Source: an uncultured Acidobacteriaceae bacterium (GTDB taxonomy: Bacteria > Acidobacteriota > Terriglobia > Terriglobales > Acidobacteriaceae). Taken from it: a stretch of DNA of 64,000 bases. The stretch covers positions 188,416 through 252,415 of the forward strand of contig CAVPPV010000001.1 of the NCBI GenBank assembly GCA_963707325.1. The letters are read 5' to 3'. The notes beneath the pieces are model-generated. The model was given only the letters and a program-made list of their open reading frames with translations, ran no database searches and was not told the origin of the DNA. Of the stretch, positions 671 through 63,593 are shown one piece after another. Position numbers and translations under genes: made by a program. Within the stretch, counting starts at the first letter, position 1. Each line of letters starts with the position of its first letter.

Positions 671-989
671 CAATGTTTCTTAGTTACTAAAAGTGGGGTG
701 CCCCATGTCTCGCGTTCTTTGCCGGGTGCCCCATGTTTCGCGTTCTTTGCGAAACATGGGATTCGACGGCGCTATCCATCCTGGGTTTAGAATCCGGCGC
801 CTGATAAGATCGTAGCCGGGTGCCCCATCTTTCGCGCACTTTGCGAAAGGTGGGATTCCACGGCCCCGTCCGTCTTTGGGTTTGGGTTCAGCCATCCCTG
901 CGGGACGGGGCTCGATTTTATTGGCATGACCCGGCGTTGAAACGCCGGGCTATTGTCGGGTCGTCCCTGCAGGACTCGGCTGCATTCTC

Positions 990-6406: not shown

Positions 6407-6493
6407 GCCATCGTGGCGGAATTGGCAGACGCGCATGGTTCAGGTCCATGTACCGGCAACGGTGTGGGGGTTCGAGTCCCTTCGATGGCACCA
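6407..6493 (+). tRNA. tRNA-Leu (anticodon CAG), CCA encoded
   Basis: Acceptor stem gccatcg/cgatggc. Anticodon stem catgg/ccatg with loop ttCAGgt. Long variable arm; T-loop gttcgagtc; 3' acca. Confidence 0.9.
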
Positions 6494-59895: not shown

Positions 59896-60141
59896 TCGCC
59901 AAAATTCATTTTTTCGATAGCACTTGATAAACCGGGAATCAAGCGCCGTGGCTTGAATGTGTTCTGCCACACTAGTGCGTCCTTCATGGACAGGTTGAAT
60001 ACGCCCATGACGGTTCGCCAGGAGAGGCTCGGTCATGCTCCGGGTTCTCCCGTAAACCTGGCTCACTACACGCATTCGGTGGGCGAGGACAACCGGAAAG
60101 TGGCCGATCAAATGGGAGCGGCTTGGGGTATGGTGAACTAA
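59896..60141 (+). pseudogene. Tyrosine recombinase (phage integrase family) C-terminal remnant
   Basis: GLNVFCHTSASFMDRLNTPMTVRQERLGHAPGSPVNLAHYTH matches the (R)HT..AS..LGH..Y catalytic end. The N-terminal roughly 250 aa are absent and the box Arg is replaced by Cys. Confidence 0.7.
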
Positions 60142-60180: not shown

Positions 60181-60222
60181 GCCTTAAACGACAAACGACC
60201 CGCAAGTTTTTGAACCTGCGGG
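60181..60222 (-). terminator. Outward-facing terminator-like hairpin at the left end of the inverted element
   Basis: On the minus strand: cccgcaggttcaaaaacttgcggg followed by tcgtttgtcgttt. Confidence 0.5.
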
Positions 60223-60455
60223 CCGTCCGGTGGACTGTTTGGGATTGACCAAGAGGTGGTCACTCTACGTGGCCTCTCACGGCGACTCCCGGGTCGGGGC
60301 CGAAGCCCAAGGATGGCAGCCTTCGCACGACCGACGCGATGCCTTCATCCAAACTCACCGGCTAGTGTGCGGGCTGTAGCTGCGGCGCGATCTGACTTTT
60401 TAGATCAGGTCTGCGTCCGAAGCCCCGCTTAGAGCAACCAGCTCTAACTCTCAGC
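60199..60455 (-). ncRNA. Left copy of inverted structured element; candidate 3'UTR RNA of the zinc-ribbon operon (or a terminal inverted repeat)
   Basis: The 55-nt core 60223-60277 is the reverse complement of 62052-62106 with one mismatch. Further shared blocks at 60369-60380 and 60418-60455. Confidence 0.45.
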
Positions 60456-60864
60456 TGTTATCGCTGTACGGGTAATCGTCGATGATGTGCCGCTTGACGA
60501 ACCTCTCCCACCAAGTCCGCGCTGGTGGGCTATCCACGGCTATCCTGGTTACAGGTATTCTCTGTTGCCGGGCAGTGGGTGGCAACTGTTTCGCCTCTGG
60601 TGTGTGCGTTCCATGTGGCTCTGCGGGCGCTGCACTCGGCTGTTGTCTGGGCCTCTCAACTCGGCGAACCCTGATCCTACCATTGGTACCGTAGCCATAG
60701 TAGGTAACTGCGTCGCGGCGTTGTTGTCGGTGCCGCCTAACCCGGTGAACCCCGAGCGTCACACCACAGCCGGTACATCTCACCGTCCGCTCGCCCGTTA
60801 CCATCGTTGCACCACAGAAGCAGTGAAAATGGAATTGTCGCTCGACGGAGACTTCCGGTGGCAT
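60451..60864 (-). CDS. CFCG zinc-ribbon protein paralog 3 (hypothetical)
   Basis: FHFHCFCGATMVTGERTVRCTGCGVTLGV followed by an Arg-rich tract. GGAGG 5 nt before the ATG at 60864. Confidence 0.6.
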   Translation of the reverse strand: MPPEVSVERQFHFHCFCGATMVTGERTVRCTGCGVTLGVHRVRRHRQQRRDAVTYYGYGTNGRIRVRRVERPRQQPSAAPAEPHGTHTPEAKQLPPTARQQRIPVTRIAVDSPPARTWWERFVKRHIIDDYPYSDNS

Positions 60865-60882
60865 GTCGTCCTCCAATCGCTC

Positions 60883-61389
60883 CTACCAATGCAGCAGATC
60901 GTACACGTAGTACAGCAACACAGAGAAAAGGGCCAGGTAAACCAACAGCGTCTTGATGTCCCATGCTTGCAGGTAACCCCAAGTCTCCCGGTGCGGGGGC
61001 ATGTTCCAGTCCAGGCCCCTAAGCAGGCCAATCTCGACGGTCTTTCCACACTTGGCACAAGTCACGACCTTGGCCCGGCTCACGGTCTCTCCCGTCGCTG
61101 GGAGAGGGGCACCACAGAAACATTGAAAATCGCAATTGCACTCGGAAACGATTTTCTCTGTCCCGAATTCTCTCCACCAGGTCAGTCTTTCAGGAGTGAG
61201 TTTCGAGTGCGAGCGGAGGCCATACACCTTCGCTCTCAAGAACACCCTGAATAACGCGAGGCCACCCAAGCCGTAAAGCAACTGACGCCAGCCGCGGTGA
61301 TAAAGAAAAAGGAGGAAGGGCGAAGCTACAAGCGTGACAGCGACAACCTCGCGGAGGGATCGTCCTGTGGAAGTATCACGCGAGGTCAT
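60883..61389 (-). CDS. CFCG zinc-ribbon membrane protein paralog 2 (hypothetical)
   Basis: N-terminal TM segments, CDFQCFCGAPLPATGE..VTCAKCGKTVEI, and C-terminal TM tail LLVYLALFSVLLYYVYDLLHW. GGAGG before the ATG at 61389. Confidence 0.6.
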   Translation of the reverse strand: MTSRDTSTGRSLREVVAVTLVASPFLLFLYHRGWRQLLYGLGGLALFRVFLRAKVYGLRSHSKLTPERLTWWREFGTEKIVSECNCDFQCFCGAPLPATGETVSRAKVVTCAKCGKTVEIGLLRGLDWNMPPHRETWGYLQAWDIKTLLVYLALFSVLLYYVYDLLHW

Positions 61390-61422
61390 GTGCCTGCCTC
61401 CAACCAAGCGTTTTGCTGACTC

Positions 61423-61704
61423 CTAGCAACTCAGCAAGTCGTACAAGTAGTATGCCAACAAAGAGTACAGGATGGAGTAGGTCATCGGCTTTTCGACCAG
61501 TTGCAGCACATCGTCAGCACCTATACGCGCAGCTGAGTACCAGCGGTGGTGGGTGCGCTTCCGGCGGTGTCGGTGAGCGCGCCGCCGAATCTCGAAGGTC
61601 AGGCCACAGTTGGCACAACTCGCCGTCTTTTCGGTCGCTACGATGGGCGCACCGCAGAAGCATTGAAGGTGATACTCGACAACGGTTTCCGGTGCCGGAG
61701 TCAT
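61423..61704 (-). CDS. CFCG zinc-ribbon tail-anchored protein paralog 1 (hypothetical)
   Basis: YHLQCFCGAPIVATEKTASCANCGLTFEI, RRRAHRHRRKRTHHR, and C-terminal TM tail YSILYSLLAYYLYDLLSC. Confidence 0.6.
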   Translation of the reverse strand: MTPAPETVVEYHLQCFCGAPIVATEKTASCANCGLTFEIRRRAHRHRRKRTHHRWYSAARIGADDVLQLVEKPMTYSILYSLLAYYLYDLLSC

Positions 61705-61806
61705 TTCGTGGCGCTCCAACTGGACTGCTTACGGCACAGCATACGCCCGGGGAGCCCTAGTGGGAATGTATTTGTTCAGCAAGGGTGACCCGGCACCAGA
61801 GTGTCA

Positions 61807-61835
61807 TTGACACAAAATGCGAGAGCGGATAATCT
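61807..61835 (+). promoter_or_regulatory. Sigma70-like promoter (TTGACA-N17-TAATCT, or N15-GATAAT) facing the right element copy
   Basis: TTGACA at 61807-61812; GATAAT at 61828-61833; TAATCT at 61830-61835. Confidence 0.5.
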
Positions 61836-61841
61836 GCGCTT

Positions 61842-62144
61842 AACACCGGAAAGGAGGTGGTCGGATGACAAGTTCAGAAGGCAGTAGTAGACGTACCCAA
61901 AGACCGGGTGAGGTGGCTGAGACTTAGAGCAGGTCGCTCTAAGCGGGGCTTCGGGCGTTTTTCGACGTTCGAGGCTACAGCCCGCATACTATCGGTGAAT
62001 AAGGATTGATTCCGCCTGACGCAGGTCGGTCAGGAGCCCGGAGTAGCCAGTAGAGGCCACGTAGAGTGACCACCTCTTGGTCAATCCCAAACAGTCCACC
62101 GGGCGGCCCACAGGTTTAATAGCCTGTGGGCTGTTCTATTTTTC
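61842..62144 (+). ncRNA. Right copy of inverted structured element; candidate RNA of about 300 nt from promoter to terminator
   Basis: Homology to the left copy spans 61915-62130. Hairpin ttagagc/gctctaa. The 55-nt core. Terminator hairpin at 62107-62130 plus ctgttctattttt. Confidence 0.45.
62107..62144 (+). terminator. Outward-facing terminator-like hairpin at the right end of the inverted element
   Basis: cccacagg-tttaatag-cctgtggg followed by ctgttctattttt. Confidence 0.55.
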
Positions 62145-62255
62145 ACCGGGGCAGAAGGCCGCCCGGAATTTTCAATGAGCGCTAAAGCCCTGATTTCGAC
62201 AATAAGCTTTGGCTCGGAGTACCCTTCACAGAAGTAATTCTGCCGAGGCCCAACT

Positions 62256-62828
62256 ATGTGGGACAACGCCAAGTCTGTGGAAGCGGCAATCAAGCGACTG
62301 ACCCGCGAGATCGAGGAAATTGATGACTTCTTCTACAAGGGCAAGGAAAACGATGACCGCGTCCTGTATGCCGGGATGCTCGAACGCAAGCGTGATGATG
62401 TGGTGCGTTCGGCAGTGTTGCAAATGCATACGGCCATCGAAGACCTTCTGAACTCGCTCATCACTTTCCACATTACCGGGGACACTCGTCGCTGGCGCTC
62501 CCCGCGCAGCCTGTCAGCGCGAGCGTTGCGCAAAATGCTTGTTGGTGCCGGCAGCCTTGGTTTCGAGATGAAACTTAACTTTGCCCTTGCGCTTAGGGTT
62601 ATCAACAACAAAACAAAAGAAAGACTTGCCATCTTGAACACCGTACGCAACAAGTGCAGCCATAATTGGGTGCTCAAAGTACCTGTGCGCTATGGGAAAC
62701 GACCTGCGCAAAAAAAACCTCCTCTACTTCTCTATGAAGGCCGCGATCTTCACAGCGTCGCGGCGCTCAAAGACTTCACGAGCGAATACGGCGGTATTTA
62801 CGTCAGGCTGTACATGGAAATCCCTTAG
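62256..62828 (+). CDS. HEPN-like (Rx4H motif) protein, hypothetical
   Basis: All-helical-looking 190-aa ORF with LNTVRNKCSHNW (R-x4-H, RN..H.W as in DUF86-type HEPN). Codon usage looks lower in GC than the core genes. Confidence 0.55.
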   Translation: MWDNAKSVEAAIKRLTREIEEIDDFFYKGKENDDRVLYAGMLERKRDDVVRSAVLQMHTAIEDLLNSLITFHITGDTRRWRSPRSLSARALRKMLVGAGSLGFEMKLNFALALRVINNKTKERLAILNTVRNKCSHNWVLKVPVRYGKRPAQKKPPLLLYEGRDLHSVAALKDFTSEYGGIYVRLYMEIP

Positions 62829-63073
62829 CTGGGTTCCTCCTGCTTGCTTCCCTTGTGCAGAGTCTATGGGTTTTTCTGTGACTGTTAGCTTGACTATTAG
62901 AGAGTCTGGAAGCGAGTTGTGCGGCTAGAATCCTTTGATTCTGCTAGAGATAGTGTGGAAGTGTGCGTCAATCGCACATTAGTACGAAATCGGCCTGTGC
63001 GTCAACCGGCACGAAAGTGGGTGTCGAGAGTTGCAACCCCCCGGTCCTGTACGTCGCGCTGAACAAGAAAAAT

Positions 63074-63183
63074 CCACCACGGAGACACGGAGGCACGGAG
63101 GAAGATCGAGAAAGGACCTGTCACGCAGAACCCTGATCTGAAGTTCCAGCATGGCTTTTCTCCGTGACTCTGTGACTCCGTGG
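63074..63183. repeat. MITE-like palindromic element (ccacggagacacggagg arms)
   Basis: Left arm 63074-63101 is complementary to right arm 63160-63183. Same arm family as 14616-14800 and 53925-53945. Confidence 0.7.
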
Positions 63184-63209
63184 TAGATTTTGAATTTGGT
63201 GCTGGATCG

Positions 63210-63593
63210 ATGACGATGGGAACCGCCTCAAAGCCGTCAACGGTGGGAGATATTCTGCGCCAGCGCTGTCCGCGCTGCCGCATGGGAAACATCTATCGTT
63301 ATTCCATCTTCCGGGGATTTCCCAAGATGCACGAGCGCTGTCCCGTCTGCGATCTCAAGTTTGATCGTGAGCCGGGCTACTTCCTGGGCGCGATGTATGT
63401 CAGTTACGGTTTGGGGATCGTAATGGTTGGGCTGATCGCGGCGCTGCTGTGGTGGGTGACCGGATGGTGGATCACGAAAGATACGATCTGGGCCGTGGTG
63501 ATATTCCTGCCGCTCGCGCCTACGATCACACTGTTGGCGCGCGTGCTCTGGATCTATCTTGACCAGACTGTCGATCCGGAACGGCGGCCCTAG
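63210..63593 (+). CDS. DUF983 domain membrane protein
   Basis: CPRCRMG..x..CPVCDL zinc ribbon followed by two TM helices. Confidence 0.75.
   Translation: MTMGTASKPSTVGDILRQRCPRCRMGNIYRYSIFRGFPKMHERCPVCDLKFDREPGYFLGAMYVSYGLGIVMVGLIAALLWWVTGWWITKDTIWAVVIFLPLAPTITLLARVLWIYLDQTVDPERRP

Follow-up and report, generated by a model that had tools for sequence, protein, structure and literature searches.

The 64,000-nt window analysed here (positions 188,416 to 252,415 of contig CAVPPV010000001.1, assembly GCA_963707325.1, from an uncultured Acidobacteriaceae bacterium; coordinates below are those of the window) contains, between positions 60186 and 62145, two inverted copies of a sequence bracketing three open reading frames (ORFs). 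A preliminary description, made from the sequence alone, had read them as two paralogous structured RNAs. The pair very probably consists of an intact structured RNA gene, related to Ms_IGR-5 (Rfam RF02471), and a second copy that has lost its 5' part; for the RNA we propose a function as a riboregulator opened by translation.

The two copies and the rearranged locus

A repeat search of the window paired 60194–60303 with 62026–62135 (110 nt, 84%), 60363–60380 with 61974–61991 (18 nt, 94%) and 60414–60455 with 61916–61957 (42 nt, 90%), the three blocks being collinear. Pairwise alignment of the copies gave a mosaic pattern, in which kept blocks are separated by spacers of unequal length. A 43-nt core is the same in both copies and has no third occurrence in the window; none of 100 shuffles reproduced such a match. 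The outer hairpins, CCCGCAGG and CCCACAGG, differ from one another at paired positions, each has a T-rich tract on its outward side, and the right one was scored as a terminator (62101–62136). All that the preliminary description had observed of the inverted mosaic pair and its hairpins was therefore borne out by the repeat search, the alignment and the shuffles. When folds were compared with those of shuffled sequences, z was about -4.8 to -5.8 for the right copy (-4.8 for the full right copy) and -3.9 for the left copy. The limits of both copies and the relation between them needed revision.

Full-length alignment to 111 homologues places a complete RNA gene of about 300 nt, which we call type B, at 61843–62145 on the plus strand, running from ACACCGG to the T-tract. 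The right copy had been drawn too short, as the gene takes in an ORF that had been set outside it. Its reading on the plus strand, as first proposed, agrees with a promoter-like site upstream, read by eye: TTGACA (61807–61812), a 15-nt spacer and GATAAT (61828–61833). A promoter consensus scan did not flag this site because the 15-nt spacer falls beyond the scanner's range. Family homology to the window begins at 61829/61830, inside the -10 region, where the family consensus is TACTAAT/GATAAT. Next comes an extended Shine–Dalgarno (SD) sequence, AAAGGAGGUGGUC (61850–61862, with GGAGG at 61853–61857), invariant in 62 of 62 aligned homologues and presumably complementary over some 13 nt to the 3' end of 16S rRNA. 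The small ORF that follows (61865–61927) has 20 codons and a TAG stop and would encode the peptide MTSSEGSSRRTQRPGEVAET; its frame is kept in 111/111 Terriglobia homologues. Its E-V-A codons, GGUGGCUG (61912–61919), form the 5' strand of a closing helix, P1, whose partner in the minimum free energy (MFE) fold is 62092–62100. That partner lies within an ultra-conserved 3' core, UAGAGUGACCACCUCUUGGUCAAUCCCAAACAGUCCACC (62062–62100), which is near-invariant in more than 100 species and in the fold supplies the 3' strands of P2'', P2' and P1 together with the AAUCCCAAA bulge. An intrinsic terminator (62101–62145) completes the gene. Covariation, a check suggested in the preliminary description, is present in the terminator stems, where 10 of 10 pairs are changed on both sides across homologues.

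The right copy is of another sequence type than its surroundings. Its best identity is 88.8%, to L074 (L numbers denote the loci compared), against about 70–75% to syntenic relatives; its peptide is the same as that of L038, which begins MTSSEGSSRRTQ; and its homology to other members is limited to the gene itself, from the -10 region through the terminator. The sequence type, the peptide and the identity to L074 argue that the right copy is foreign, a xenologue, and neither a local duplicate nor the product of an inversion. We take it to be a complete foreign-type gene of the kind found in other Terriglobia lineages.

The left copy (60186–60455, minus strand) is truncated at 60455, and its extent as first described requires correction in this respect. 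It comprises the 3' 270 nt of a gene that we call type A, begins with GCUGAGA, ends in a terminator (60199–60222) and its T-tract, and is without the promoter, the SD and the ORF up to GGUGAGGUG. It aligns at 81–88% to the 3' part of the single gene in L095, L025, L036, L047 and L079, and in L025 and L079 the match runs on into the downstream flank. BLAST of the region against the fetched loci showed an uninterrupted single gene in these five and in L016, L068 and L118. In L025, L036, L079 and L095 the intact gene lies between a DUF983 gene and the same downstream flank as in the window. The DUF983 gene (63180–63593, plus strand; Pfam E = 9e-8) serves as the synteny anchor, being upstream of and divergent from the RNA gene in 23 relatives.

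The promoter region of the relatives' gene, directly upstream of ACACCGG, matches window positions 62970–63040. An orphaned promoter is found there on the minus strand (62970–63005), with TTGACG at 63005–63000, TACTAAT at 62984–62978 and the end, GCGAUU, at 62970, collinear with L036, L079 and L025. Read against the same three loci, the junctions are 60455/60456 and 62969/62970, so that a 2514-bp segment (60456–62969) stands in place of the first ~88 nt of the resident gene (ACACCGG ... GGUGAGGUG). The left copy would thus be the remnant of the resident gene, with its promoter stranded beyond the 2.5-kb segment. An inversion between the copies was rejected as the origin: nothing of the resident 5' part is present, and the right copy is foreign in type over its 5' part as well. 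Among 77 highly conserved positions the remnant has a single alteration (C to G in GAGAC), which implies either that the event is recent or that the remnant is still constrained. Since the resident gene was beheaded by DNA bearing a complete foreign copy, the organism may need one working copy of it.

These findings bear on how the two elements were first compared. As had been suggested, both represent a gene for a structured RNA and have intrinsic terminators that face outward; they are not equivalent paralogues, the gene being single-copy and uninterrupted in relatives and the left copy lacking the promoter-proximal ~88 nt with the SD and most of the ORF. The present position of the remnant agrees with its description as the 3' end of a zinc-ribbon operon. 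That both elements begin at the stop codon of an ORF is likewise true on both sides, for different causes: the right-hand ORF belongs to the RNA and is conserved with it, and the left-hand one is a zinc-ribbon ORF that reads into the remnant and finds its TGA there.

The arrangement is reminiscent of tRNA and tmRNA genes hit by integrating elements, in that a small RNA gene is the insertion site and the incoming DNA brings a replacement copy. It differs in that the replacement is a whole inverted gene and not a restoring 3' fragment in direct orientation, that the 2514-bp segment contains no integrase, and that about 88 nt of the target were lost. At the right junction there is a direct repeat of 11–13 nt (one mismatch over 13; 62962–62974 and 62996–63008), the segment's first bases (minus strand TTGACGCACAC) repeating the -35 region of the orphaned promoter; this may be a trace of junction formation. 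The orphaned promoter is aimed into the segment, antisense to a 190-amino-acid (aa) ORF, and could drive an antisense transcript. A 35-nt inverted repeat with CACGGAG-like heptamers (63069–63103 and 63157–63191) has its arms shortly ahead of the DUF983 gene and at that gene's start.

An RNA family related to Ms_IGR-5

We searched genomes, one for each species, with a 19-base pattern drawn from the core. At least 120 loci were obtained; at least 116 are clear homologues and four others are chance matches within unrelated sequence. The homologues all come from separate assemblies and match once per locus; Acidobacteriota, Terriglobia or Candidatus Sulfotelmatobacter stands in nearly every title. 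Plasmid and phage BLAST searches and a pattern scan of viral contigs gave no match to the element. Its occurrence once per genome at conserved syntenic places argues against a dispersed mobile repeat.

In an alignment of 114 sequences (112 homologous loci and the two window copies) conservation begins well upstream of the element as first delimited. The order is a -10-like TACTAAT/GATAAT, ACACCGGAAAGGAGGUGGUC, an ATG 7 nt after GGAGG, the short ORF, GGUGAGGUGGCUGAGACUUAGAGC, variable hairpins, the core and the terminator. In all 111 Terriglobia ORFs the start is ATG at this spacing, the stop is TAG and the distance from GAG to the stop is exactly five codons; there are six lengths (18–23 aa), every one in frame. 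Length variation by multiples of three only is hard to account for without translation. The peptides follow the pattern MTSS...RPGEVAET, with a hypervariable middle rich in Ser, Gly and Cys. E-V-A (GAG GUG GCN), five codons before the stop, is found in 111/111 Terriglobia and in 119/120 metagenome sequences (see below), and is not in Rfam's description. Pfam and NCBIfam searches of the mini-ORF peptide gave no significant match. The downstream neighbour varies in Terriglobia, the commonest downstream ORF occurring at only 44 of ~116 loci. From these comparisons the element appears to encode a structured RNA of some 300 nt, and a Terriglobia genome normally has one such gene.

In the MFE fold of the whole right copy most of the SD region is unpaired, and a long interrupted rod is formed between the end of the ORF and the 3' core. 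In P1, GGUGGCUG pairs with CAG-U-CCACC and the AAUCCCAAA bulge lies on the 3' strand; P2' pairs GACUUAGAG with CUCUUGGUC, and P2'' pairs GGUYGCUCUA with UAGAGUGACC. The 5' strand of this P1/P2'/P2'' rod is made of the last five codons and the UAG stop, variable hairpins form its tip, and the terminator abuts P1. On an alignment of 62 Terriglobia sequences (A2) the rod-plus-terminator structure is 97.6% paired, and the observed covariation was reached by none of 500 shuffles; the signal comes from the terminator, with its ten doubly changed pairs, and from P3. P1 is 99.8% paired on A2, yet invariant. Rival local hairpins, a CUUAGAGC/GCUCUAAG stem and AGAGG/CCUCU, fit A2 equally well, and column 445, which changes from U to C in the L053 clade, has G as its partner in both models. 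Within Terriglobia, the rod and local-hairpin models are inseparable. The ttagagc/gctctaa stem pointed out in the preliminary description is accordingly a possible pairing, one of two that are compatible; the MFE fold and the actinobacterial homologues favour the long-range rod.

P3 is absent in the short variants L017, L066 and L111, and L049 and L062 have additional hairpins, a typical pattern for structured RNAs whose peripheral stems vary. Two further pairings were considered and rejected. An SD:anti-SD pairing (AGGAGGUGGUCG with UGACCACCUCUU) can be drawn on paper and does not vary, yet lies outside the MFE fold and is uncompensated in the L053 clade; CACCGG/CCGGUG pairings are broken in L023 and L060.

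The preliminary description recognized no known RNA family here and advised a comparison with Rfam. At gathering level, a scan of the whole window gave nothing at the locus; it found only a tRNA-Leu(CAG) (6407–6493, plus strand) and an Acido-Lenti-1 RNA (RF01687, 41.7 bits, over its cut-off; 930–976, plus strand) elsewhere, both in keeping with an acidobacterial source of the window. A permissive search gave Ms_IGR-5 as the sole match at the locus, with 19.3 bits over the full model length (61843–62139), and the element is therefore a sub-threshold relative of a known family. Three of eight Terriglobia members tested matched the model in full length and in the same register at 24.7–27.5 bits; nothing was reported for the other five.

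A second pattern, GGAAGGAGGTGGTC and GTGAGGTGGC separated by a gap of 15–40 nt, gave at least 120 metagenome loci. Eight high-GC loci were submitted to Rfam, and all eight score 60–180 bits on Ms_IGR-5; two loci of another type (L133, L243) were submitted and both are under the cut-off. At 119 of 120 metagenome loci there is an ORF of the form M-x3-(W/R)-T-x-E-V-A-x-x-stop, of 12–18 codons and mostly 12, starting with TTG, GTG or ATG and again with exactly five codons from GAG to the stop, which is TAG in 113/119. On an alignment of 56 Actinobacteria sequences (A3) the P1-equivalent helix, GGUGGCUGCG/CGCAGCCACC, is 96.4% paired, none of 500 shuffles being as good, and four pairs are changed on both sides (UA/GC, GC/AU, CG/UA and CG/GC). 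A local hairpin at the stop codon was no better than shuffles in Actinobacteria. The actinobacterial MFE fold has the same architecture as that of Terriglobia: a free SD, P1, an 8-nt bulge of the AAUUCCC type, P2, an apical hairpin and the terminator.

The Terriglobia RNA thus shares with Ms_IGR-5 a 5' ACAC..GGAAGGAGGUGGUC motif, a short ORF ending in E-V-A-x-x-stop, a closing helix of GGUGGCUG and CAG(U/C)CACC, an AAUYCC bulge, and the form of a stand-alone gene with a terminator. The 5' motif, in full ACAC-NN-G(G/A)AAGGAGGUGGUC, occurs in 62/62 Terriglobia sequences and in the same register in the Rfam consensus and A3; the closing helix (GGUGGCUG/CAGYCACC) and the AAUYCC bulge directly before the terminator are in the MFE folds of both phyla. 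The Terriglobia RNA is larger (~300 nt against ~180 nt), has extra variable internal hairpins (P3–P5) and an ORF of 18–23 codons instead of 12, and has the 39-nt invariant core as its own. It belongs to another phylum and another gene neighbourhood: DUF983 and others in Terriglobia, and in Actinobacteria an aminotransferase-IV (pabC-like) gene and a convergent nitrobindin-like gene, the gene names being our own reading of the sequences. We conclude that the Terriglobia RNA is probably a divergent, enlarged and distant branch of the Ms_IGR-5 family, and by Rfam's own criterion not a member of it.

The same RNA plan was seen in further lineages: in L133, L161, L243 and L245, the helix of L133 being GGUGGCC/GGCCACC; in L175, L177, L209 and L217, the helix of L175 being GUGAGGUGGCCG/CGGCCGCCUCAC; and in L165 and L174, which are Acidobacteria-like. 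Their sequences are different, and so are their peptides (MGSINPTASEVAAS, MSTGSSKPSEVADC, MQSSDCHSCSRPGEVAET). In two actinobacterial metagenome contigs a c-di-AMP riboswitch lies 2 kb from Ms_IGR-5 (L145, 790–963; L157, 1467–1659), probably by coincidence. Ms_IGR-5 is listed in the literature as a conserved, expressed small RNA (sRNA), and ribosome-protected reads on it are reported in Mycobacterium abscessus and M. smegmatis (PMC4974804). The literature found on Ms_IGR-5 gives no function for it, and a literature search on names of the ncRv0812 type returned no match.

Cargo of the segment and neighbouring ORFs

Besides the right copy, the locus contains three paralogous zinc-ribbon ORFs on the minus strand (60451–60876, 60883–61407 and 61423–61719), with a C-x-C-G ... 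C-x-x-C-G motif. Two end in a hydrophobic YY(L/V)YDLL tail. The 141-aa ORF that ends in the remnant, which supplies its TGA, has no such C-terminal tail and is therefore probably truncated. Among 5.8 billion proteins these zinc-ribbon proteins have one distant relative, P0002 (46% identity), whose locus includes an integrase fragment, a resolvase and a Gp49/HTH_37 gene pair that we read as putative toxin-antitoxin genes. The idea that the element travels with the zinc-ribbon genes was rejected, as P0002, the only relative, sits in four loci without it.

The 190-aa ORF (62256–62828, plus strand) also lies in the 2514-bp segment. Its product has more than 550 close homologues, in varied neighbourhoods, no Pfam domain and no match in PADLOC; Pfam, NCBIfam and PADLOC searches of the cargo proteins gave nothing significant. 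It may be an accessory or defence-island gene; homologues in L127 and L128 adjoin an N6_N4 methylase and a ResIII helicase. A module of this gene and the RNA was rejected, since in three other genomic contexts (L125–L130) the gene is not adjacent to the RNA. Two short contigs of about 1 kb from other sequencing runs (L251, L252) carry an identical 190-aa gene. L251 ends ~170 nt upstream of it, and the break would lie within the repeated RNA core, where an assembler halted by the inverted repeat would be expected to stop.

To the left of the remnant, a 62-aa ORF (59953–60141, plus strand) resembles by eye the C-terminal end of a tyrosine recombinase (..CHTSASF..LGH..YTH..). This reading had no Pfam or PDB support and was rejected. 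The same DNA is also found downstream of the RNA gene in L025 and L079, and hence predates the insertion.

A proposed translation-opened riboregulator

We propose that the free SD of the RNA would recruit a ribosome, that the ribosome, translating the mini-ORF to its stop, would melt the closing helices, and that this opening would switch the 3' core and its bulge between a closed and an open state. The activity or stability of the RNA would then follow translation. The last five codons and the stop lie inside P1/P2', so that a ribosome at the stop must open the rod and free the core and the bulge. The E-V-A residues coincide with P1, and the last two codons and the stop with P2; by our own reading of the sequences and the RNAalifold fold, the R/W-T/P residues appear to coincide with a small helix against the 3' flank of the SD. 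As the peptide residues conserved between phyla all coincide with helix strands, the act of translation is a likelier requirement than the peptide, and probably matters more than the peptide itself. The comparisons suggest that the mini-ORF is translated. Its near-universal UAG may reflect either the helix sequence or a dependence on RF1.

Attenuators of the trpL/hisL type have a very short translated ORF, with codons in alternative helices and an intrinsic terminator after them, and the position of the ribosome decides the fold. The Terriglobia RNA is similar in having mini-ORF codons in helices and an intrinsic terminator after them. Unlike such leaders, it has no conserved downstream gene on its own strand (what lies downstream is convergent in Actinobacteria and varies among Terriglobia) and no run of regulatory codons, and its terminator is 150–250 nt from the ORF. 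Because no same-strand downstream gene is conserved, the RNA is unlikely to be a classical attenuator and more plausibly acts in trans or in association with ribosomes. Stand-alone structured RNAs that end in a terminator and contain a small translated ORF are also known as dual-function sRNAs (SgrS/SgrT, SR1/SR1P, RNAIII/hld). The Terriglobia RNA resembles these in being stand-alone, structured and terminator-ended with a small ORF, and differs in that the ORF is inside the main structural helix and the middle of the peptide is hypervariable. Nor is it like type I toxin mRNAs such as hok, with their small hydrophobic membrane peptides, the Terriglobia peptides (MTSSEGSSRRTQRPGEVAET and variants) being hydrophilic and rich in Ser, Gly and Cys.

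Two other explanations concern the pair itself. That it represents two functional paralogous RNAs, the left one a 3'-UTR-derived (3' untranslated region) RNA of the zinc-ribbon operon kept by selection, we regard as unlikely. The remnant does retain 76 of 77 highly conserved positions and its terminator, folds well (z = -3.9) and follows directly on the stop codon of the 141-aa ORF. It has, however, lost features that do not vary in the family (the SD, the GGUGG half of the 5' strand of P1 and most of the ORF), its one change is at a position at least 97% conserved and in both candidate helices, and none of at least 116 relatives has the same arrangement; a recent event explains the high similarity equally. 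The preliminary description had offered as its alternative that the copies are long terminal inverted repeats of a non-autonomous mobile element carrying the three-gene operon. Inverted repeats do bracket accessory genes that are nearly without homologues, and the possible recombinase fragment at 59953–60141, judged by eye only, is nearby. Nevertheless, at least 116 assemblies have one copy each at syntenic positions, the 64-kb window has just two, the outer flanks (before 60186 and after 62145) show no direct repeat or target-site duplication, the left flank is the native downstream flank, and plasmid, phage and viral collections gave no matches. With a right arm that is a complete gene with promoter, ORF and terminator, and a zinc-ribbon protein whose only relative is in loci without the element, we consider a mobile element extremely improbable.

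The remaining two concern the RNA. It might be an ordinary small-protein mRNA, with a functional 20-aa peptide and a conserved downstream part acting as a stabilizing 3' UTR; in its favour are a frame, start and stop conserved without exception, a very strong ribosome-binding site, and the ribosome footprints reported on the actinobacterial relative (PMC4974804). We doubt this about as much as we doubt functional paralogues, since conservation is far higher in the non-coding 3' core than across the middle of the peptide, third codon positions of conserved residues are also invariant, the residues common to both phyla (R/W-T/P and E-V-A) coincide with helix strands, and the peptide is without a match in Pfam or NCBIfam. 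Somewhat less likely still is a purely non-coding sRNA, in which the ORF would be there by chance and the 'SD' would serve structure or target binding. RNA pairing would explain all of the conserved codons, and on paper the SD can pair over 11–12 bp with GACCACCUCUU in the 3' core. Such an RNA would not be expected to vary in length by threes only, over at least 10 lengths in two phyla, with the start codon always at the right distance and never an internal stop; and the SD:core pairing lies outside the MFE fold and acquires an A-C mismatch in the L053 clade, in which compensation is seen for other partners.

Several observations weigh against an intact and a beheaded copy of a translation-opened RNA. 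The RNA gene in the source organism is known from sequence alone, and 'single copy' rests on at least 116 genomes among the matches listed. The Terriglobia scores of 19–27 bits are under the Rfam gathering cut-off of 45. P1, P2' and P2'' are near-invariant within Terriglobia and hence almost without covariation of their own, and the single compensated pair (94–445) fits a local hairpin (390–445) equally well. Peptide conservation is fully explicable by RNA pairing. Lastly, no target duplication, and no recombinase within the 2514-bp segment, were found that would account for the replacement.

A more specific and rather speculative extension of the translation-opened model is that the RNA is a riboregulator of Actinobacteria, Acidobacteria and further lineages, in which transit of a ribosome through a 12–23-codon ORF, with a ~13-nt SD and almost always UAG, unzips the closing helix, and the 3' core then reports translational capacity or RF1-dependent termination to a partner. 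If true, the RNA would represent a new class of stand-alone RNAs that sense translation.

Locally, the genome rearrangement is an ordinary one, if instructive; the interest lies in the RNA family behind it. Ms_IGR-5, so far an Rfam name without a function, appears to be part of a much wider family that reaches Acidobacteria and further lineages; the current Rfam model, at its cut-off, misses the Terriglobia branch, which has a 39-nt core that is near-invariant in more than 100 species. The mini-ORF codons that form the closing helix, common to all branches, provide a concrete idea of function, which may be tested in tractable organisms such as M. smegmatis and Streptomyces.

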